DNA of 63,061 nucleotides, counting the filler, from Bipalium vagum (Eukaryota): the NCBI GenBank assembly GCA_037834085.1. It is 3 parts of 3 records of this genome, joined end to end, with 100 filler letters (N's around TTAATTAATTAA, not from the genome) between each part and the next. Parts side by side here need not be neighbours in the genome. Positions count along the whole stretch, not along the records: positions 22,340 to 47,425 come from JBBMKC010197387.1; 2 more parts are not named here. One strand, given 5' to 3'. Made by a program: the position numbers and the translations under genes. Numbering within the stretch: position 1 is the first letter of the stretch; each line of letters begins with the position of its first letter. Of this stretch, positions 22,340 to 46,112 are shown one piece after another. Under the pieces are notes generated by a model. That model made no database searches. It was not told where the DNA came from and saw only the letters and a list, made by a program, of their open reading frames with translations.

Positions 22340-22410
<71 letters not shown>
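22340..22410. repeat. (TAT)n microsatellite abutting the gap
   Basis: Perfect TAT array. Confidence 0.95.
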
Positions 22411-22414
<4 letters not shown>

Positions 22415-22654
22415 TAGATTTATGAGAGAAAAATTTTAAAGTAACATTAAGTTACTAAAAATACAAATGGTAAAATTGGAAAGAAAGCAGGCAAAGCAAA
22501 TTAATTAAGGAAAAAGACAATTACTTAAAATAAAAAGAAGGAAAAAATAATCGTATCGAACACACTCTATTGCAACCTTCAACCGTTGAGACCTAAGCCA
22601 AAACTTAAGCTCCGTATTTTAACATCAATTTAACCACCCTCTTAGGATCTTAAC

Positions 22655-23154
22655 AGTTTTGTAAAATTAATTTCATTATCAATTTTAAATAACTCAAAAG
22701 AAACTTTATTTATTGTTAAAATATTTTTTTCAATTGATGGTTTTATTGTTAATGGTAATTCTTGATGATTACGAAAATACTTTTCAAAATTAATATCTTC
22801 ATGTTGTGGAGGTTGATCAATCTTTTTATTGAAAAGATTATCATTTGTTTCATCCTTAATTTTAGCTTCGATCCTTATTTGTTCTCCAATTTCTTCTGTT
22901 ATAACAGAAGTATTTTTATCTAGCTTTTCTTTGTCCCGTTGTTCTTTTTCGTGTTGTAAAATTTTTGTTTATTGTTTAGATTTATTAACTGCATCGGTAA
23001 CAGGTTTATGAAAAATTTTTAAATCTTGTTGAAGTCCTCTTTCTTTTTTCCATTGATTTAATTGATTAGTTTCAAATTTATATTTTACTTCTTGTAATTT
23101 TTTTAATTTTTCTATTCTTTTTTTAAGATCGATTGAATTTTGATTTGTATTCAT
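22655..23154 (-). pseudogene. Maverick-associated coiled-coil protein, truncated
   Basis: MNTNQNSIDLKKRIEKLKKLQEVK...DLKIFHKPVTDAV; frame continues ~100 codons past one premature stop to about 22655. An FxKP(V/I) motif after an N-terminal coiled coil is common in Polinton accessory ORFs. Confidence 0.5.
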
Positions 23155-23392
23155 TTCGATTTTGTGAAAAAAAAGTAGCACCATAAGTGTGTTTTTAAAA
23201 TAAAAAATTAAAATAATTATTTTCATGGAAATTCATAATATTCAATTTCCAAAAAATCATAAATATCTTAAAGCGATTGAATATTAATATTTTTTAAAAT
23301 AGGAAAAATTTCTAATAAATATAAAATTTTTTTTAATTCAAAAATTTTACCATTATATAAAGCATTCATTTTTTTTAAAAAAATTAATTTTT

Positions 23393-24039
23393 ATAAACTT
23401 TTAACTTTTTTTAGATACTCTTTTTTCACTTCTATTTTCAACTCTTTCTTAGTTTCATTTTTAACGTTTTCAATAACATTTCCATTTTTATTTTTATAAT
23501 ATTTTCTCTAAATTCTTGAATTATGTTTCTTGCTTGTTCAATTTCTTCATTAGTAATAATTTTATCTTCTGTAGCTCTAAGTTGAAAAATATAAAGTTTA
23601 TTAATTGAACTTTCTTTAGACTCACAAATTTCTATAAAATTTTTTTGGTTTTGAAGTAATATCTTTTGAAATAGTTTCAGAAATAAATTAATTTACAGCT
23701 CCAAAATTGCAGTACCAATAGGAATATAAAATATTAATCCAACTCCGAAAGATGAAATTCCTGTCATTACTGCTGTTCCAACTCCAACAATACCTGTTAT
23801 ACAATTACTTCTAATTTTAAATGAAAATCTATTTTAGTATACTTAAATTTTAATTTTTTATGTGTTAATAAATCTTTTAAAACTTTTTTTTCATTCATAT
23901 AATTTTCAATTTTTAATTTTTCTAATTGATCAATAATTGGATTAGAAAATCTATCAGATTCAAATTTTTCATCTTCATAAATAAATTTATTTTCTAAATT
24001 TGGATACATTTTTTCAAAAGGTGCACTTGGTTTTTCCAT
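23393..24039 (-). pseudogene. Maverick membrane protein with N-terminal PSAP and YPxL motifs and Gly-rich hydrophobic hairpin
   Basis: MEKPSAPFEKMYPNL...; after frameshift ITGIVGVGTAVMTGISSFGVGLIFYIPIGTAIL(G)AV; then RATEDKIITNEEIEQARNIIQEF. Confidence 0.65.
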
Positions 24040-24684
24040 TTTTTAAAAAAGATTTAGAATTTTACATCATACCGTATATTAGAATAAAATTGTTTCATAA
24101 AAATTTCAATTTCTTTTAATTCATTATTTTGTAAATATCTTTGAAAAACTATAATCTCATAAATTTTTATATCTTCTGAATTAATTTTAAATGAAAAAAA
24201 TAGTTTTTCCACCTTCAGTGAAGCTAAGCATATTACAAATGGATTCAAATTTATTTTCTGAATTATAAAAAAAATAAAATTTCTTTGTTTTATCAGACCT
24301 GATCAATCCTTTAAAACTTTTAACTAACTATTTTCTAAAGGTTTTCCATTCATCATAAAAAACTCCTATTATTGTAAATTCATCTTTCAACATTTTGCAG
24401 CAGATTTATTAATTTTAATTAGATTTTCTTCCATTCTCCATTTCAAGATATTGAAATGATTTTTCTTTTGTTTGAAAAATTCTTTTACATTTCGAAGTTA
24501 CTGCATTTTTTCTTCAATTGCAGAATCTTAAAAATTTGTATTAGTTTTTTAAAAAAGAATATAAACAAAAATTACTATTTTGAAAAATAGATTTTGGTGG
24601 ATTTTCTTGATTCATTTTTAAATTTTAAATTTAGATATTTTTAATTCAGTATTAAAACAAAAAACATATTATTATATATTTATT

Positions 24685-26148
24685 TTACATTAAGCTTCTT
24701 TGAAGTTCATTTTCATAAAATCTACATAACTTTTTTCTCCTTTTAAAATCTCTAATTCCATAAACAATTGGAGTTGTAAAATAAATTTCATTAATAAAAA
24801 ATATTTCATTTGTCCATTTTGCTGTATATCCTTTTTCAAATTTATTTTTACATTTAAAAATTCTTACTTTATCTCCAATATGATATTTTGGTTTTGAGGA
24901 TAATTGAGAAATGGAAGAGGTTTTATCAGTTAGATCATTCTTTAACTTTTCAGGATTAACCATAGGTTCAGCCAACTTTGTTGGACTGGTTGAAGACCTT
25001 GACAGCTGTGCTGGATCTTTAGATGCTTCAGTTGGTGTTATTCCAATTGAACTGTGAATTTTATTATTATAAAAACTAATTAAATTTGGTAAAAGATGTA
25101 ACCATTTTCTATTTACCTGTTTCGTAAATTTTTTAAACATCAAATTTTTTAGAGCTCTATTAAATCTGTCAATGAAAACAAGCATTTGTAATTGATTGAC
25201 CTTTTTTATTTTTTAAAGGAACAGCAAAACAAAACGAGTATATAAATCAATAACTGTTAGAATTATTTTATAATCTTTTTCTCCAGGAGCAAATGTAAGA
25301 CCTGCAGACCAAATATTATACCTATAATTAACTCTAACTTTTAGGAAATTTTTAGTTTTTCTAAATTCTTTATGAAGTTCATTTGCAAGTATTTTTGATT
25401 TTTCAGGAGTAAGAATTTTTGTTTTTTCATAGATTTTTACATTTGCGAGAGTCTTTGTAGATCTTTCTAATCCTAATCCTAAAGCTATCTTTCCTTTCAT
25501 AATTAATTTTACAATTGCTCTTTCAAGTTTTTCTCTTGGAGTTGAATTTTGAATATTATTCATTTTATGAATCATATCTACGTCTGCAACATGTCTATCT
25601 TTTAAATCTGTTGACATTTATTTTACATCATGTTTCATTGCTGCTTGATCAACTCGATTTATTAAAATTGAATCAGGTTTTGGAATTGGGAAATTGATAA
25701 ATCTCGATTTTCTACTATTTCATTATAGTTTTCTAAACGTTTATTAACACGGGTTCCAGGTCCAGTAAAATTGTGGATTTGTTTTGTTTAAAGGATTTAA
25801 AGATTTTAAATGTAATTCTCCTGAATATTTTCCAGTTGTAAATTTGTTAAGGAATTTATTATTTGTAATTTGTGATTGAATATCTCCTCCTGTTTTTATA
25901 AAAATCGATGGATATTTTTCTTGAATTTTTTGAATATTTAGATTTTTATTTTTAGTCGTTGATAAAGTTTTTTCAGTCGTTGTTTTTTTATTGATGTTAT
26001 TGTTATTTTTAATCGTTTTTTTTTCGTTGAAAGCGTTGTTTTTTCTTTGAAATAAATTTTTTTAATGTATTTTTGTATCTTTATGATGACTTTTATTTTT
26101 TTTATTAATAGATTTATCACAAATTTCACAATACCATTTTTCAACCAT
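24685..26148 (-). pseudogene. C2H2 zinc finger - PLA2-like domain - Polinton integrase fusion, pseudogenised
   Basis: MVEKWYCEICDKSINKKNKSHHKDTKIH; GGDIQ..GELHL; HNFTGPGT; NRVDQAAMKHDVK*; RHVAD; KIALGLG in the same open frame as LANELHK..IWSAGL..ILTVIDLYTRF; then IDRFNRALK, YNNKIHSSIGITP, PKYHIGDKVRI, FEKGYTAKWTNEIF, FYENELQ. Confidence 0.85.
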
Positions 26149-28008
26149 TTTAGTGTATTTTTTAGTGATTTTTCTGAACTAAAAAAAATATATATTTGTC
26201 CCCAATACAATTATTTTTTTTGATTATTTTTTAGTGGTTTTTTTGATATTTATATGACATAAAATGTATTTTATATTTTTTATATTTATATGACACAAAG
26301 TGTACCCTGTTAATCAACACATTTTTTTCGTGAACAAAAAGAAGCCCTGAAGTTTTTATATACATATATATTTTATGCTTTTTTATATTTTATTTTTTAC
26401 TTTTATTTTTTTATATTTTTAGTAATTTTGTATAATTATAATTTTGTTGCCAAAAGTATATTTTTTAACCTATTTTAGGGCTCTTTTTTATTCATGAAAG
26501 AATGGGGGGATAATAAAAAAATATTATATTTTTAAGAGGTAAAATATACTTATTTTAATGTAAAAATATCTTATATAAATATAAATATAAATGTAAAATA
26601 TAAATATCTTAAGTAAAATATCTTATTGTCTTATATGACAAATGCTATATAAAGCTTTTTTGTAAGTGTTTTTTTATCAATTTTTTGTCATATTTTGTAC
26701 ATTTTTAGTTTTCTGTTATGATTATTTTAAAATTTTAAAATATGTTTTCATGTTTTTTCTATTTTTAATGATTTTTGTGATAGTTTTGAAAAATACATAA
26801 AAAATCGTATACCGCCGACTTTTTTCCATTACTTAGATCAAAATGAATAGAATTACAGGAATTATTATGAAATCTTTGTAAAAATAAAATAAAAATATTT
26901 AAACAGAAAAAAGAATTATATATCGATTCTTATGGTAAAAAATATTTTGATGATCAAAATGGATCTGCAAAGCAATAAGAAAATTGCTTATTAATTTGTT
27001 TCTGTAAACATAGTATTAGTAATAATAGTATTTTTATGTAACCGATATAACCAAGAAGATTGAAAATAAATTTTTATTAGTTTTACTTTAATAAAGATTT
27101 TAATGAATGAACAAAATATAACAAAAAATTTAATAAATGAAATTTTAGTTAACCAGTAAGGAAATCTATGAAAATAAAAAATATTTTTTTTTTAAAATCA
27201 AAAGTATGTTGTTATCAACAAACCTAAAATTTAATAATTCACGATACAAATCAATGAGGTATAAAACTTTTTAAAGTCTTAATACTTGGGGTTTTTAATT
27301 TATAAAAGTAAAAATTGCAATTATTAAATTTTATTTGGTGTAGGTTTTATTTTAGTATCCGACAAATGCCACTCTCTGCTTTTGTAAGACTATTTCCCAG
27401 TATAACCCAATAACAACAAACCTTTGGCAAACTCAACATAACGATATTATTATAAGAATTTATTATTATTATAACCACTGAGGCCCCTTGGTTGTCTTTA
27501 TAATTCGAAAGGATGTGCCTTCAGCCAACTCAACATAGTTATTAAAAATAATATTCCAGCCTTAAATATAAAGATAAATTTACTTATAACAGTCAATAAA
27601 AAAATGTTTTTTAATATTTTGTTAATTTTAAGTAATTATTTAAAATTTTAAATTGTACAAAACGAAATTTCTTTGTTTTTCGTTTCTTTTTAAATAGTCT
27701 GATTAGAATATTACTTCACAAAAAGGTTAACTTAAAATATCTAAGTAACATATCAAAGTTTACATATTTTCCTGATTTGTCCTGCATCAAATTTGAATTT
27801 TTTAATGTGCTTTTTATGTCTTAAACTTATAAAAATTGATAGGTGATCAAGCTTTTAAATTAAGATTATTTTTACACATGAATTTAAATATACGCTGTAG
27901 GAATCAAAAATCGGATACAATTTAAATATCCAAATTTAAGATGATTTTGTAAAATGTAATCATTTTGAAATAAATAATGTTAACATGATCTTATTACATT
28001 TATAAAAA

Positions 28009-29431
28009 CAGTATAACCTGCATAAGCAGAACAAAAATGGGACTACAAAAGTTTATTCTGTTTAAGCGAAAAATTCTGTTTAAACGATATAATCATCAAA
28101 ATAAAACACTAATAAAATACTATGTTATTATAATTAAATTTTATTTCAAGTTAAGATATTCCGTAATTTTTCTCTGGATCAATTTTTTCTTGAAAATTCT
28201 ATCTCTGAGATTATTCTCAACGTTAAGTAAGTTGATATAAATAACTTCATTGTAATTTTCTGTAAAATAGTATTCCTTAAGTATTTTTAAAGCTTCTAAT
28301 ACATGCCCAATTTCAATTTCATTTTTTTTATCCAATGGTTTTAATACATTAATTTCGGATGAACCATGAATATTCTCAGTTTCTTCCAAAAACCCCTACT
28401 ACTTCCAAACCATTATCAATAACTAAGTAATCCTCTAAATCTCGTCTTGATTCAAAAAATTCGGCTAAAACAGTAGATACATCTTTAATTTTGTTCTCAA
28501 TTAAAGCATTTACATCTTCAGAAGTCTCAGGAATGTTTACTTGTTGCTCGGTTTTAAATATTTTCCAATAATGATAGGAGGCTTCTTTTCACCAGTAATA
28601 TTAGCACAAAGAAAAACTCTTAACCTTTCTTTTGATATTTTACCACCTCTGCATCTGTCTCCTTTAATTCTCATAGTTTTTTTAGGTAACATTTTAAAGA
28701 AAAGACCAGTCTCACCCCCATTAAAGATATTTCGATTTTTATATTCCAATCTTAGTTGAGGCCATTGATCAGTTAACCAATTTTTAACAACCAACTGATC
28801 CACTACTTTAGATTCACCAGATACAATACCATATGTAATTGAATGACGGTTTTTAAAACGTTCAATCCAACTTAAGTTACAATTGAAATCTTTAATTTTC
28901 AATCTTTCGGAGAATTGAGCCGCTTTTTCAAGAAGTATTTGTGAAGAAATTGGAACATTGCTCATTCTTTGAAATTTAAACCAGTTCAGTAATTCGGAAT
29001 CAATGCTTTCAAAAGGGGTATTTTTAACTTTCTGGGTGTTTAATGGTCGAGTTTAAATAACATCACAAATTCTTTCTCTCTTATTTTTTATTGATGAAAC
29101 TATAGAAAGGTAGAGATCATACTTTCTTGCTACATCAGCTTGCTTAACACCCGCATCCAACAGACAAGAAATTTCATATTTCTCTATAAGAGTTAAAGTT
29201 TCCTTTTTCCATTATTTGTAATTCTAAAAGAGATTTAAAAAGGAAAGAAAAACAAATTAAAAAAAATTAAACATAAACAAAATCAAAATTATTAGAATTT
29301 AAAAATTAAAAATCTTAAACTAAAATTTATTCTGTTTAAACATAATCGCTTAAACAAAACAAAAAGTAATAATAAAGATAGGAAGGCGAAAATATGGGAC
29401 TGAGATTTGTTCTGTTTAGCAGGTTATACTG
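28009..29431 (-). mobile_element. pogo/Tigger DNA transposon, internally deleted
   Basis: TIRs CAGTATAACCTGC..CAGAACAAA at both ends, right TA intact. CENP-B HTH (VPISSQILLEKA, SWIERFKNRH), IFNGGETGLFFKMLP (catalytic D lost), GGKISKERL, PPIIIGK and QRKITEYL tail; most of DDE_1 deleted. Confidence 0.92.
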
Positions 29432-33859: not shown

Positions 33860-34825
33860 TAAAATGAAAATTGTAAAACAAAGAAATTTTCTATATTTTG
33901 ATCCATATGAAAAAAGCAATATTAAAATTTTAAATAATAATGTATACACAAATTATGAAATCTAGTTTACTGTTAGAATTTTTATGTAAATATGGAATTA
34001 ATACAACTAGGAATTGTGATTTAATATGTATTGCTGAAGATTTAGAAATGCTTTTAAACGTTTTTGTGAAAGATGATTTTAATAAAATAGAAAAAATCTT
34101 AAAAACCTGATAAAACTGGAGGCAAAAAAATTATCACTTAAAAGTGTGTTTACAACCATGGTACACTTTGTGTCACACATGAAATATTTTTTTTCAGAAT
34201 TATGAAAACACTACATATATATATATATATATATAAAGTTTTTTGACACACCTATGATTTATAAATCTAAGAAACTTATGTTCAAAATATTATTAAAGTT
34301 GATTACTAAGCGAGTCAAAAAATATGTCTTTTAAATAAATTCAAAATTTACTAAATGACTATATTACATGAAAAAGTAATATTTATTTTAAAAATTTTAG
34401 GATATTTTAAATAAGCATTTATATCCATACAAAATAAATTATAAAATTATTTTGATTAAACATCGTATATAAAATATAAGGTGTGTCAAAATAATTAACC
34501 ATTAGTATATGTACCAAAAATATGAAACTTAAAAATCAAATGTTTTCTTTAAAAATTGGTAATGAGAGAAACATACTTTTGTCATTTTTGTAAAAATAAA
34601 CTTCAAAACAGAATAAAAACAAGCATGAAAACAGTAAGAAACGTAAATTTAAAAGAATGAATAAAAGTATGAATGAAAATAAATGTCTAAATATTCAAGA
34701 AAAATATCCAATTTTTTTCCAAAAGTTGGTGATGATATTCAACAAACAATAACCAACAAGAAATTTTTAAATAAATTTACGACAGGAAAATATTCAGGAG
34801 AATTTCATTGAAAATCTTTAAATAA
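33860..34825 (+). mobile_element. Second, diverged fragment of the same Maverick lineage
   Basis: 34562-34823 reads YFCHFC...NIQEKYP..GDDIQQTITNKKFLNKFTTGKYSGEFH*KSLN, homologous to 26148-25800 (minus); shared upstream 16-mer GGTACACTTTGTGTCA. Confidence 0.75.
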
Positions 34826-35939: not shown

Positions 35940-38085
35940 GATATAAAAAGGCTCAGAAGATGCTGAGACATTCAGTAAGAAGATAGAAAGGATGGTGAAA
36001 AGAATCCTATCACATTATTTGAACGAAGAAGGAGAGAAGAGGAGAATAACCGACAAAGTATAGAATGTTGGTCATGCAATCAAAGAGGACACATCAGCAG
36101 AGTATGCCCGATGAGGAAAACCAAAAGATGTTACGCCTGTGGCAGGGAAGGACACATTAGAAGATTCTTTACGGAAGTTCATTGTGGAAGATCCAACCGA
36201 AATGGCCATATAGAGGAAGACTGTTATATAAAAATAGGAGGAGACACAATAAATGTTAAGCCATGGAGGCAGCCTATGCATCTTAAAGACAAGATTAATG
36301 AAGCGAAGATTTATATATCAATGACATCATACTGATGTTATACACCCCTGATATGCGTGTGGAAGAAAGTAAAGAAAGATATTGACGTTGTCTATATTTT
36401 CGACAACTAAACCTAGAAACGGAAAGACAGGCCTTCTCCATGCCGAATATAGATGATATGTTGGACAAACTTAATAAAACCGTTTATTTTAGCTCTATCG
36501 ACCTCAGATAGTCTTACTACCAGATAGAATTGGATGGAGATTCGAAGCAGAAGACAGCATTCTCGAAGAAATCAGTACAGTTTTATTTCAATCGCTGCAG
36601 TACCATGTACATTCCAAGAATTGATGACCAAAATCCTGGGAGACATAAGAGGAGCTGTCGTGTATCTAGATGACATTCTAATACAGTCAGAAGGCCTAGA
36701 AGAACACTACGAACGCTTAAATGAAGTGCTGATGAGAATCGAATCAGCAGGAATACAAATAAATCCAGAAAAATGCTCATTTATACAGAAAGAAATAAAA
36801 TTTTTGGGGCATATTATCAGCAATTAAAGTATGAGAGCCTAAAAAACCTATCACTCTACAGTTCCAGAATTGGATAAATTATTTAAGCGGCTTAGATATG
36901 AAACTAGAATACCGACAGGGAACCAGTCATCTGAATGTAGACGCTATGTCAAGGATAAAATGTAGAATGGGTTAGCATTGCCAAATAATGCACGAAGAAG
37001 CAAAGACCGAAAAAATACAGACACGGTTACTGATAATAACGAGAAACGAAGATCATAAATGACGGAAATGAAATTACACAAATAAAGAAAAGAGTTGCAA
37101 AAGAATAAGAGGCAAGATTTATCGTAATTAATAACGTCGTTTGCACTAGGAACGGACGAATATGGATACCAAGGGATGTGAAGAAATGATCGAAGAGACA
37201 CATAAACAACTATGTCATGCTGCAATAAAAAAGACGTTGAGATATCTACAAGGCAGATGCGAAATGGACGAGATGAGTACCAGAGTAAGGACATATGTAC
37301 AGAGTTGCGGATTGTGTCAAAGAACCAAACCAGTGACGACAACCATAAAAGAAGAAACAATAAGACTATATGCAAAGAAACAATTCGAGAAGATATTAGT
37401 CGACATATGTGGACCACTGAAAGAAACGCGGTGTCGGAAGAAGTACATATTATTGATCAATTTAGCAAAACATCTCTCTAGCAGCTGTGATCAGACAGGA
37501 TGAGGATACAATTTGGTATATAATTAGAGATAAATAGGTACTACGTTTCGAAATGCCAAAAGATATCCACGTGGATTGTGGCAGATCATTGGAATCAATA
37601 AAGATCAAGAACTCGCTCCTGGAGGCCGAAATTGGAATCTTAATGTCCAGACCGTATCACTACCAAATCAATGGAGTAATAGAAAGAAAATTTTGACAGT
37701 TCGTGAATTCTTTAATTCAACAATGAAAGAAAGGAAACTAACCGATTGGGCTAGTATTCTCCTCGAAGTAGAGTTTGTATTAAATACTATGGTGCAGAAG
37801 ACAATCAGAGTCAGTCCAGCCGAGATCGTGTTTGGAAGAAGAATCAATAGAGACAGATGGATCGGAGTAGCAGAGACAGAAGAGACTACTGGAATCGAAA
37901 GAAGTCATGGGAGAACAAGAAGAAAATTTGCCACCAATGACGATGTCATGGTCAAGATCGAAAGTAGAACAAAGGACAGTGACAGATTCGAAGGTCTATT
38001 CCAAGTCCTAGGAAAGATACACAATCTGAGATACGAACTCCGAAATCAAAAAGGAAAAGTAATTCAAAGAAATTCAGATAAATGA
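35940..38085 (+). mobile_element. Ty3/gypsy LTR retrotransposon internal relic (gag-RT-integrase, with deletions)
   Basis: Zinc knuckles CWSCNQRGHISRVC and CYACGREGH; RT MPNIDDMLDKL, FSSIDL, VVYLDDILI, INPEKC, FLGHII; integrase HKQLCH..CGLC, VDICGPL, SPAEIVFGR, DRFEG. Confidence 0.93.
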
Positions 38086-39199
38086 GCATTAAAAATTTTT
38101 AAAGGTAATATATTTAAACAATTGATTAATATTTTAATTACTCTAAAACCTGAAATAATGCCTCGCGGCTTTAATTTTTTCAGTTTTGAAAAAGACCACG
38201 AGGCTTTATTAAAGGGATGGGCTTGAAAGGAGGAGGCGTTATTTCAGTTTTAGAATAATTAATTTAATTTCAAAAATTGAATTTCATAATTGTGAATTTA
38301 ACTAGATTAATAATATTTTTTTTACAAAAAATTATTCGTTCAGCTTTTAATGGTTCATTTGATAAGTCATTAAAAGAATTTATCTAAACTCACTTCATAT
38401 TTCAATACGTTTAATCTGATATATTCAATACTTTTATCAAAATTATGTCTACTTATGTCTAAAATATTATAACTTAGATATAAAGAAATTTATTTCTTTT
38501 TTAAAAACTATGGGAAATTCAAGAGGACTTAAACTTAAAAATAATTTTGTATCTTTAAGTGTTCCTATTTCTTCAAATAATTAGAACTTTAAAGATTTGA
38601 GAATTTTTAAAATATTTTTCAATAATAACAACATATTTCCTTCCATTCTGCTTTAAATATTTTTCTTTTTTCACCATAATTTTTTAAAAGTTAAACATTC
38701 TAAAATTCAAACTTTGTTAGCCAATAGTTTTTTGCAACAAATCTGATTATCTTTGCTTATTTTCAAAGTTATACCTAATTGATTTTCTGAAATATTTTTA
38801 AAATAATAACAAAAGAAAATCTTGAAAAAATCATTGTTTGATTAAATATTTATATTCTCTTTTTTCTGGAGTACGAGTTAATTCAGCTGACCAAATATCA
38901 TCTTTTTAAAAAAAAATTCGACAATTAAAATGTTTAATTTTTATAAATTCTTTTACTAAAGTTCCATTTTATTTTGGGAAACATTCTTTAGTTTTCAGTA
39001 CTAAGATTTTATAAAGCCTTGAAACCAAAAGGTATTTTACTAAAATTGATAACCTCTTTTTATCACCATTTAAATCAATAAAATATCTGTGATTAATTTA
39101 ATATAAATTTGATCGTAACAATACTTTAATTAGTAAAAACAAATTTTATTAATGTAAAAATCAATTAATTCAAATTACATGATCAAGATCTAATAGATA

Positions 39200-43618: not shown

Positions 43619-46112
43619 TGTTAGTTACATTGACATTATTAGAAAAATCCTCAACATCCATTTTCAAAAATCTGTATTTATCTGTCACAAAACTATTTTA
43701 AAAAAACTATTTAAATAATAAAACTGTTTAAATAATAAAACTTCTAAAATCAAAAATAATTTAAATTAGTTTTGATTTTGAAATCCTCACATCCCCCTCT
43801 TTTAAAGTATTTCATCTTTTCGATGTTTCTGATTATTTTCTTTCCATTCGAATCTGTTATCTCGTAGCATCTGTCGTGAATCTTCCTTTTGATTTTCTAA
43901 GGTCCCTCGTATCGATCTTGATCTTTGGTTCGATCTTCTTTCCTAACCATGACCATTTTTCCGATCGTAAACTCCCTTCTGGTTTTCTGGCTACTCAATT
44001 CTTGATTCGTTTCTAGCTATTTGATTCTCACTGAACCATCTTTCTCTATTTATTTTCTGACCTAAAATTAATTCAGCTGAACTCATTCGAATTGTTTATT
44101 GTACCGATGAATTTAAACTATTTTCAATTTCTGTTAAAATTTCAGCTCAATCGGTGTTCTTTCTATCCTTTAAGGTTAAATTTACATACTCTCTTATGGT
44201 TCGAAATTGTCGTTCAACGATTCCATTTGTATTGTGGTGATATGGGCTAGAGAAGATCAAGTCTGCCAGTCTTTTAAATTCTTAGGACTCAAAACATTTT
44301 CCACAATCTGCATGTATCTGCTTAGGAACACCAAATCTTAAGACCCAATTGTTTTATACTATCTTGACGACAGTATTATTGTCCTTTCTTGCGATGTACT
44401 TACCAAAATGATCTATGATTGCCATAATGTATTTCTTTATGTGGAAAGTTTCTTTAATGGTCCACAAATATCTAGGTAGACCTTCTCAAACGGCTCTATC
44501 GATCTGATTATTATTGTCTCCCTTCATATTTGCTGTCACCGTCTTGACTCGTTGACACGTTTCACATTTTCTTATATTTTCTGTTACCGTACTGCTTAAT
44601 CCTTCCATGTCAAAATCTTGTAAAATGTATTTCTTCACTTTCTTTGTTCCCGCATGAGATAGCAGCTTGTGCGTATGCATGATGAATTCTTGTTTCTTCT
44701 TGTGTGGTATCCATATTTTATTGTTCTTTGTAATTATCGTATTGCCTGCCAATATGAAGTCTTTCTCTTTAACCTTAACAATGTTTTCTTTGATTTTACA
44801 AATTTCGAGATTATCCCTTTGTCACTGTTCACCTCTATCTTTGCTGAGCAAATTTAAAATTCTCGTTTTCATCTTTCCAGATTTAGAATAAGAGAATAAT
44901 AGCATAATAGAATGTAACATAAGGCACTGTATGCAGGTCTCACAAGATCTTCTCGACAACATAACAGCATTAGAATGTTCTGAGCCTTTTCGATATTCTA
45001 AATTTATGTCTAAACTACTTGAGTAGTTTATCCATATCTGGAACTGTGCTGTAATTGGCTTCTTTGTTGTCAGCATAAGTGTTATAGCTTTGTGATCTGT
45101 TCTAACAGTAAATCTTTTTCCATATACATGTAAATAGTAATTAAAGTGATTGCAGAAGTAATAAATTGCAAGTACTTCTTTCCTTGTGATGCAATATCCC
45201 TTTTCATGAGAATTTATAGCATGGGATCCATAGAATATTACTCTTTCCCTCCCATTTCTGTGTTTTTGCGCTAACACGGCTCCCATAGTATCAAAACTGC
45301 GATATGTGTCAAATATGAATTCCTTGGTGAAATCGGGAAAACAATATTGGTGATCTTATAAGTGCTTCTTTCATCTCTACAAACGCATTTTCACAATTAT
45401 CTGACCAGATTAACTTCCCAATTGTTTTTCCACACATTGTTTATAATGCCCTTGTTTCCTGCGAATATCCTTTCATGAACCTTCTGTAATAGTTGCAGAT
45501 TCCTAAAAAACTGCGAAGGCTTTTTACACATTTTGGCCTTTCATATAATTTAATTGCTTCAATCTTCATATGGTCCGTTTTAACTCCGTCTTTGCTGATA
45601 ATGTGGCCCAAACATTTAATTTGACTTCTCATAAGGTGGCTTTTTTCTGGATTTATGGGAGGTCCCGCTTCCCCAATGCTTCCAATTACGCGATTCAAAA
45701 TTTTATAATGATTCTCAATGTTGTCGGTGAACACCAGTATGTCATCCAGATATACGCATGTACCTTCCATTCCGTTGAGCACCTTGATCATCAGTACTTG
45801 AAAAGTTCCCAAAACTGCTGCAATCCCGAAAGACATTCTATTAAAACAGTATTGGCTTAATTTTTTAGAGAACGCTGTCTTCTTCTTTGATTCGTCTTCC
45901 AATTCAACCTGGTAGTAGGCATTCCCTAAATCAATCGAACCAAAATACCGAGCTTTCCCAAGTTTATCCAGCATATCTTCTATATTTGGCATTTATCTAT
46001 CACAAAACTATTTAAATAAAACTATTATTCAAATATTAATAGTTTAGTTTAAATAATAAAACTTTTAAAATCAAAAATAATTTAAATTTGTTTTGATTTT
46101 GAAATCTTCATA
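43619..46112 (-). mobile_element. Ty3/gypsy element lacking gag/protease, with 3' LTR and truncated 5' LTR
   Basis: RT (FGSIDLGNAYYQV, VYLDDILVF), RNase H (MGAVLAQ, ITRKEVLAI, VRTDHKAI), integrase (HKLLSH..CETC, DICGP, SSPYHH). Polypurine tract at 43792-43805 abuts LTR start 43791. LTR repeat at 45992-46112. Possible TSD ATACT (43614-43618 / 46113-46117); left boundary tentative. Confidence 0.9.

Follow-up and report, generated by a model that had tools for sequence, protein, structure and literature searches.

The window (the whole stretch of Bipalium vagum DNA that we analysed, 63,061 nucleotides) includes, at positions 26148-24685 of the minus strand, a decayed gene that combines a zinc finger, a PLA2 and an integrase and belongs to a high-copy Maverick/Polinton family. 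We estimate a probability of roughly 0.6 that the intact form of this dead gene was one protein, likely finger-PLA2-integrase, which likely carried the integrase into the particle and from which a protease freed it. The architecture and the element context recur in relatives, in which the motifs of PLA2 and integrase are conserved and the two domains are joined in two modes, in frame or at -1. It is also somewhat better than an even bet that a large Maverick/Polinton branch has converged on the Gag-Pol strategy, with a -1 frameshift yielding a minor PLA2-integrase polyprotein that delivers the integrase in the particle; several stems would have been invented for this, other lineages (including the family of the window) would have a hard-wired fusion, and standard annotation would then split the gene and truncate the integrase.

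The decayed gene and its sibling copies

The gene lies in the part of the window (positions 22340-47425, 27% GC) that comes from contig C197387 (JBBMKC010197387.1). Its features are collected in Table 1, with other observations on the same contig.

Table 1. Positions of the gene remnant, its parts and other features of the window.
Feature	Position	Strand	Basis
Start codon and single C2H2-type (U1/matrin-like) finger	26065..26148	-	C-x2-C-x11-H-x5-H, ATG at 26148
In-frame stop directly after finger	26062-26064	-	translation
K/N/T-rich low-complexity linker, highly variable between copies	25891..26061	-	translation and sibling comparison
Parvovirus-type PLA2 domain, GGDIQ to LGLG	25468..25890	-	motifs, homologue alignment, sibling PF08398
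GPG Ca-loop of PLA2, different frame from GGDIQ	about 25752-25775	-	one frameshift pair around loop
DxxAxxHD motif of PLA2 (here DQAAMKHD)	about 25627-25650	-	translation
Stop after HD motif of PLA2	25618-25620	-	translation
In-frame linker, Gly-x-Gly motif to integrase	25390..25467	-	translation, sibling spacing
rve integrase, LANELHK to C-terminal domain, without chromodomain	24685..25389	-	motifs, sibling PF00665
144-nt core deletion in integrase	near 25220	-	spacing against siblings
Stop inside integrase	25213-25215	-	translation
Decayed downstream ORFs, same element	22636..24302	-	ORF mapping
Upstream DNA common to other copies, up to about 26500	26149..26500		copy comparison
T-run ending in AG, splice-acceptor-like, about 30 nt 5' of finger ATG	26170-26195	-	
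Short piece of the same PLA2-integrase gene	34701-34823	+	
Short piece of the same PLA2-integrase gene	38840-38950	-	
Tc5/pogo-type transposase remnant	28537-29052	-	PF03221
Decayed LTR retrotransposon	35979-38085	+	zinc knuckle, RT, RNase H, integrase zinc domains
Decayed LTR retrotransposon	44486-45992	-	zinc knuckle, RT, RNase H, integrase zinc domains

All the motifs named in the first-pass annotation are recovered by translation of the minus strand. According to that annotation the finger is reached through frameshifts, which does not hold for the finger and the GGDIQ segment (they share one frame, with an in-frame stop between them and no frameshift) and does hold for the GPG loop, which is in another frame. 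The join between PLA2 and integrase, said to need no correction, indeed needs none: the ORF 25213-25617 runs unbroken from the C-terminal helices of PLA2 through LGLG and LANELHK to TVIDLY. Further into the integrase, the spacing from TVID to ERFN is 90 nt in the window against a mode of 234 nt (20 of 33 copies), and because 144 nt are missing from the core the second acidic catalytic position is absent; the first and third are substituted. With the stop after the HD motif, these changes bear out the description of the copy as dead, an ordinary fossil. It is truncated near the contig end, without the protease gene that comes after the integrase in other copies, and no terminal inverted repeat was recognised in 22340-28200. 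The fragments of the window have no relevant Pfam match by themselves. By tblastn, the database homologue P0001 aligns with the window over residues 34-461 (E 2e-87), a likeness that we judge to be beyond chance.

Sibling copies were compared individually. The search of the B. vagum genome gave at least 87 matches with DNA (from 40 of 3665 candidates scored) and at least 103 with protein (from 92 of 4915 candidates scored). No sibling copy that was translated has an unbroken frame from the finger to the end. The copy L021 has a single 496-aa frame from PLA2 to the end of the integrase with matches to both PF08398 (27.3 bits, cut-off 23.9) and PF00665 (43.2 bits, cut-off 32.6), and PF08398 is also found in L014 (25.1 bits, cut-off 23.9); the identification of a parvovirus-type PLA2 and an rve integrase is thus upheld. 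The finger was called C2H2; its best Pfam match, in L021, is a sub-threshold zf-U1 (E 6e-4, 20 bits, cut-off 22), with no zf-C2H2 match.

In 24 of 31 sibling copies the linker between PLA2 and integrase keeps the frame, and in 19 it measures 108 nt. Ten of 18 window-family linkers contain a slippery heptamer somewhere; no heptamer is common to more than 4 of the 18, and none of the 18 has a stem with z <= -2. The family of the window has neither a shared slippery site nor a stem at this join. The spacing from finger to GGDIQ ranges from 163 to 289 nt among copies, and in 13 siblings the frame of this linker is maintained in 4, at +1 in 5 and at -1 in 4. A finger/PLA2 frameshift, suggested by the five +1 copies, was dropped given this 4:5:4 split over a low-complexity linker, which therefore reflects linker decay only, so that siblings do not settle the frame. 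Finger and PLA2 probably shared a frame, as indicated by sibling L025, where finger and GPG lie within one natural frame, and by six intact homologues described below.

On sibling contigs the natural ORFs run from the integrase fusion to the protease, then through several unknown ORFs to the minor capsid, the ATPase and the major capsid. The protease is 3' of the integrase in L067, L072, L074, L077 and L079; minor capsid and ATPase share a contig with the integrase in L071, and the major capsid (PF21738) does so in L058, L060, L064 and L066. The linkage of the gene in siblings, though not in the window, to a double jelly-roll major capsid, a minor capsid and an A32-like ATPase, together with the protease and PF00665, supports the Maverick/Polinton identity. 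By motif likeness, the protease is an adenovirus-like cysteine protease; in the relative L147 the PF00770 match is sub-threshold. The genome has 75 PF03175 (PolB) matches, and PolB is linked to the window-family integrase only through the capsid gene, in L055, where PolB faces the major capsid gene. An apparent integrase-PolB linkage on contig C204146 (L062/L063) was rejected, a host Cse1 gene lying between the two, and no contig joins PolB and a window-family integrase without a host gene between. That host Cse1/exportin-2 frame is long and unbroken (L062:9480-9998, L063:2-2293) and has a Maverick integrase on one side and a fragment of PolB on the other. At least two distinct Polinton-like lineages can be told apart in the genome from their PolB, capsid and ATPase (L046, L047, L054, L082, L084).

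Homologues of the fused protein

Among 87 longer proteins retrieved with a natural sibling frame, by a query and a length filter that favour fusions, 65 have both PF08398 and PF00665, and a purpose-built profile identifies PLA2 in 70 and protease in 7. The expectation that PLA2-integrase fusions might already be in databases was therefore correct. The suggestion that the three-domain form could be new was not, since 6 of the 87 are intact three-domain proteins with the finger N-terminal. In these homologues the domains occupy a single ORF and not separate ones, which, with the L021 frame, supports one ancestral polypeptide for PLA2 and integrase.

The D/H/D/Y residues of PLA2 do not vary across 44 aligned proteins, and neither do the second and third carboxylates of the integrase; all three carboxylates are conserved in a 23-protein alignment. 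A profile of related PLA2s matches AAV VP1 (E 5e-4). The P0001 model (pLDDT 77, pTM 0.53) has a finger, a disordered linker and a helical PLA2; the glycine motif is followed by a helical linker, and the fold of the integrase matches those of foamy-virus and MELD-virus integrases. The finger is beta-beta-alpha (two strands and a helix, pLDDT about 75). A viral-contig scan with P0001 alone gave no match.

The PLA2 domain is of the same parvovirus VP1 type as PLA2X, a virion module of Polintons (PMC8502044, PMC3671162, PMC5803895). In section 3.2 of Starrett et al. 2021, the PLA2X of alpha adintoviruses and group 2 Mavericks is its own gene (PMC8502044). That PLA2X has a pX-like tail (PMC8502044), whereas the window family has the integrase in place of the tail; in alignment the pX-like C-terminal domain is absent, and the integrase follows the Gly-x-Gly motif via a short linker. 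The C-terminal chromodomain described for the adintovirus integrase (Starrett 2021; Buck 2024) is absent from the window family and from all six finger-bearing homologues, which end with the C-terminal domain. At the other end of the protein, most related PLA2s have a C4 zinc ribbon (DUF5679) where the window family has the finger, and small separate ORFs with similar fingers are present in the related elements L094, L255, L124 and L132. The finger looks like a replacement of one zinc module by another.

The integrase tree (121 of 164 rows, with all fused integrases and a subset of the stand-alone ones; quick IQ-TREE, midpoint root) places the window family and all six finger-bearing homologues in a clade of 14 (SH-aLRT 96), nested within 34 in-frame fusions (SH-aLRT 99). 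At least 6 changes between -1-frame and in-frame joins occur on the tree, which does not give the order of the states. In-frame fusions of protease and integrase (P0030, P0040, P0048, P0059, P0060, P0066, P0067, L102, L147, L258) appear in at least three places.

The PLA2-integrase junction in relatives

We scanned collections of viral, metagenome and genome sequences and obtained 181 loci, some of them duplicated. The frame tally includes loci with PLA2 just upstream of the integrase and with frames unbroken or cut only by the contig end (n = 20). Left out are duplicates (L203, L204, L256), broken loci (L131, L138, L144, L145, L151, L155, L181, L187, L194, L267), L130, in which the contig begins within PLA2, and L154, with the shift after ELH. 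Relative to PLA2, the integrase is at -1 in 13 loci (L093, L094, L124, L127, L132, L133, L139, L164, L170, L179, L253, L254, L255), at +1 in one (L252) and in frame in six (L092, L123, L125, L129, L135, L268), counts that are not independent because the loci fall into few families. In L093, a break occurs downstream of the junction. L255 is a long element in which the ATPase, capsid, PLA2 and PolB frames are all unbroken, and where an integrase started at the first ATG would be without the first catalytic Asp. Three studies contribute contigs (runs X1, X7 and X9) that bridge its junction gap-free; among the X4 pieces listed, none bridges it. As to RNA, three raw runs have 0 reads and the sole RNA assembly misses the junction. 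The Polinton contigs L252-L269 were found within bins labelled bacteria or archaea, and are likely mis-binned eukaryotic-virus DNA.

The split -1 arrangement may be widespread. We found 2897 short PLA2 proteins, and amongst those bearing the motif, 109 of the best 117 end no more than 25 residues from it. With hand-made, family-specific signatures, the tails read as the -1 shadow of an integrase start in 71 of 120 cases (the full split being 71, 16, 25 and 8, with 16 at +1 and 8 in frame), which makes for weak support, as the signatures are hand-made and the matches redundant. A general back-translation classifier does not discriminate, placing 27 tails at -1, 33 at +1 and 8 in frame, with 52 undecided (n = 120).

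A canonical slippery heptamer is in the right phase at 14 of 20 junctions (broken loci included) against 1.75 expected by shuffling, and in the other two phases at 6 and 4; heptamers come cheaply in DNA with 75% AT. Two of the six junctions without a right-phase heptamer are mis-set windows. Folding of the sequence past the heptamer predicts a 12-bp hairpin, separated from it by 5 nt, in L124, L170, L254 and L255 (z -3.8 to -4.7). In L131, L144, L181, L187 and L268, and also in L130, L132 and L139, the prediction is a long-range stem that begins after 7 nt; in L164 it is an 8-bp hairpin that begins after about 8 nt. The stems differ among the three families and the single locus, and each begins 5-8 nt past the heptamer. 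In fixed-window folding, 8 of 17 loci of this kind (whose families are not independent) reach z <= -2; among stand-alone integrases 2 of 61 do so, and among in-frame fusions 0 of 8. The predicted frameshift signal, defined as an in-phase X XXY YYZ heptamer followed 5-9 nt later by a stem, is strongest at A AAA AAC and G GGA AAC sites. The latter is found in L268, where relatives have A AAA AAC; L268 keeps the family stem and is in frame only because of an extra base upstream. Covariation can be seen in the stems, but with so few sequences it falls short of significance: one family has 1 double change in 12 pairs and 4 sequences, equalled in 118 of 500 shuffles, and the other two have 1 and 3 double changes. 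Phased heptamers, stems and indel-free contigs point to a Gag-Pol-like programmed -1 frameshift in the relatives, and the family of the window would be its hard-wired version.

A DNA pattern for other integrase families has 21 matches in the B. vagum genome against 13 in the control, and a heptamer-plus-ELHKP pattern identifies at least 120 stretches in viral contigs. The 141 pattern loci listed from both sources include no PLA2 or integrase match.

A different overlap is seen in insect-type elements, in which PLA2X overlaps the protease gene at -1, with A-run heptamers, in 5 of 6 loci (L095, L096, L099, L106, L152) and at +1 in L098. These overlaps have no stable stem, and L101 and L103 have an in-frame fusion. 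The arrangement agrees with the paired PLA2X / PLA2X-Adenain annotations in the supplement of Buck 2024 (PMC11071296).

Proposed delivery of the integrase

Frameshifting, packaging, cleavage and PLA2 activity are all predicted from these sequences, as follows. In split lineages, most ribosomes would stop after PLA2, and a minority would slip back one base to make PLA2-integrase. In the clade of the window the join is in frame, and every PLA2 would carry an integrase. A predicted core protein would take the integrase along into the virus particle, where the element's protease would release it by cutting at Gly-x-Gly. PLA2 would act at entry, and the finger would bind nucleic acid. Delivery appears to be the most economical reading: a predicted particle protein would bring the integrase along, on a minority of its copies where the join is at -1 and on all of them where it is in frame.

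Of 70 PLA2-integrase joins, 57 have Gly-x-Gly, compared with 8 of 350 background windows, and 6 of the 13 misses do show the motif in alignments. It is also present at 8 of 10 protease-integrase joins, the remaining two being DAG and GG. The motif may predate the fusion because it terminates stand-alone PLA2X domains as well. Gly-x-Gly is a putative protease site by analogy with adenovirus-like proteases, on which the cleavage reading leans; the usual junction, K-L-G-x-G, does not meet the P4 rule of the adenovirus protease.

The fusions could instead result from genome compaction, in which adjacent late genes merge by loss of a stop codon, the products are parted by the protease or not at all, and the integrase works in the cell, unpackaged. 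We find this unlikely, even though several pairs of partners exist (PLA2-integrase, protease-integrase, PLA2X-protease), stand-alone integrases that have a Met of their own are numerous (61 loci), and about 7 changes between the fused and the stand-alone state are required on the tree. The partners are mostly predicted particle proteins, and random stop loss would not yield phased heptamers and stems at a fixed spacing.

More doubtful is a second explanation, which keeps some plausibility for the long-A-run class only, that the -1 joins are in-frame fusions that suffered one-base deletions in A runs, by mutation or assembly error, or are subject to transcriptional slippage. Loss of a single base gives exactly a -1 offset, and the A7-A10 junctions L094, L127, L133, L179 and L253 have no stem on folding, while L138, L194 and L252 are +1 and in-frame variants of that class, which is thus found in all three frames; because of the missing stem and the variable frame, some other slippage is possible at these long A runs. 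Elsewhere, three families maintain the offset across samples, with an A6 run that ends in phase on AAC, and one member has GGG for AAA in its heptamer. The in-frame fusions have no stems (0/8, 0/18), and contigs of three studies show no indel.

It is hardly credible that split forms make a separate integrase by splicing, a non-AUG start or re-initiation, with the stem regulating that, since L094 does have its own AUG 7 codons before ELH but the other 12 of 13 -1 loci have no Met between the last stop and the conserved ELH motif, and the A-rich gap from Gly-x-Gly to a conserved Trp, as short as about 33 nt, is too small to hold an intron or an acceptor rich in pyrimidines.

Delivery of the integrase as part of a particle protein would have a close parallel. 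In retroviral Gag-Pol and Gag-Pro-Pol, a structural protein brings enzymes into the particle by -1 frameshift (a heptamer and a stem), followed by proteolysis, and LTR retrotransposons with a single-frame gag-pol take the in-frame route. PLA2-integrase resembles Gag-Pol in that an enzyme is placed on a particle protein at -1 or in frame, packaging being predicted in Mavericks. The two also differ: retroviruses are RNA viruses whose protease is aspartic and whose carrier is Gag, whereas Mavericks are dsDNA elements whose protease, a cysteine enzyme, is supplied in trans and whose predicted carrier is a small protein that bears a lipase.

The in-frame PLA2-integrase fusion is already on record and is not new. 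Supplementary file 2 of Buck et al. 2024 has at least two under the name PLA2-Integrase, in the genomes Adinto15303 and Adinto6405, with a G-x-G...ELH join like that of the window family; unlike the window family, neither begins with a C2H2 finger (PMC11071296). The finger-bearing form is a minor undescribed variant. Section 16 and the available passages of Buck 2024 do not discuss the fusion and give no mechanism for it, and Adinto13074 is given as two genes, PLA2X and an integrase from an internal Met (PMC11071296). The same section proposes slippery sites for Penton (Penton+) and Hexon-Adenain, which extend a virion protein in the same virus group as the relatives studied here; in the available text that proposal is not extended to the integrase (PMC11071296). 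The name Adenain-Integrase is not found in the supplements of that paper that were searched (PMC11071296). No PLA2-integrase join is reported in the available text of PMC3671162, PMC5803895, PMC11296320, PMC11161782, PMC8097293, PMC12567637 and bioRxiv 10.64898/2026.06.19.733378. In the literature on polinton/maverick integrase, taken here without subscription papers, Repbase notes, figures and some supplement parts, we found no description of a PLA2-integrase frameshift, and on integrase in mavirus particles we found nothing usable. The likely programmed frameshift at the PLA2-integrase join of the relatives is the part that looks new.

In annotation, a split locus appears as a short PLA2 next to an integrase that lacks the first catalytic residue, and such loci could be taken for pseudogenes when intact elements are counted. 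For the biology of Polintons, the finding bears on how they bring integrase to incoming DNA and on whether they form particles. The integrase has repeatedly been fused to predicted particle proteins, at a level that a frameshift signal would adjust, which is indirect evidence for integrase in virions. If true, this would be a striking convergence between dsDNA elements and retroviruses.
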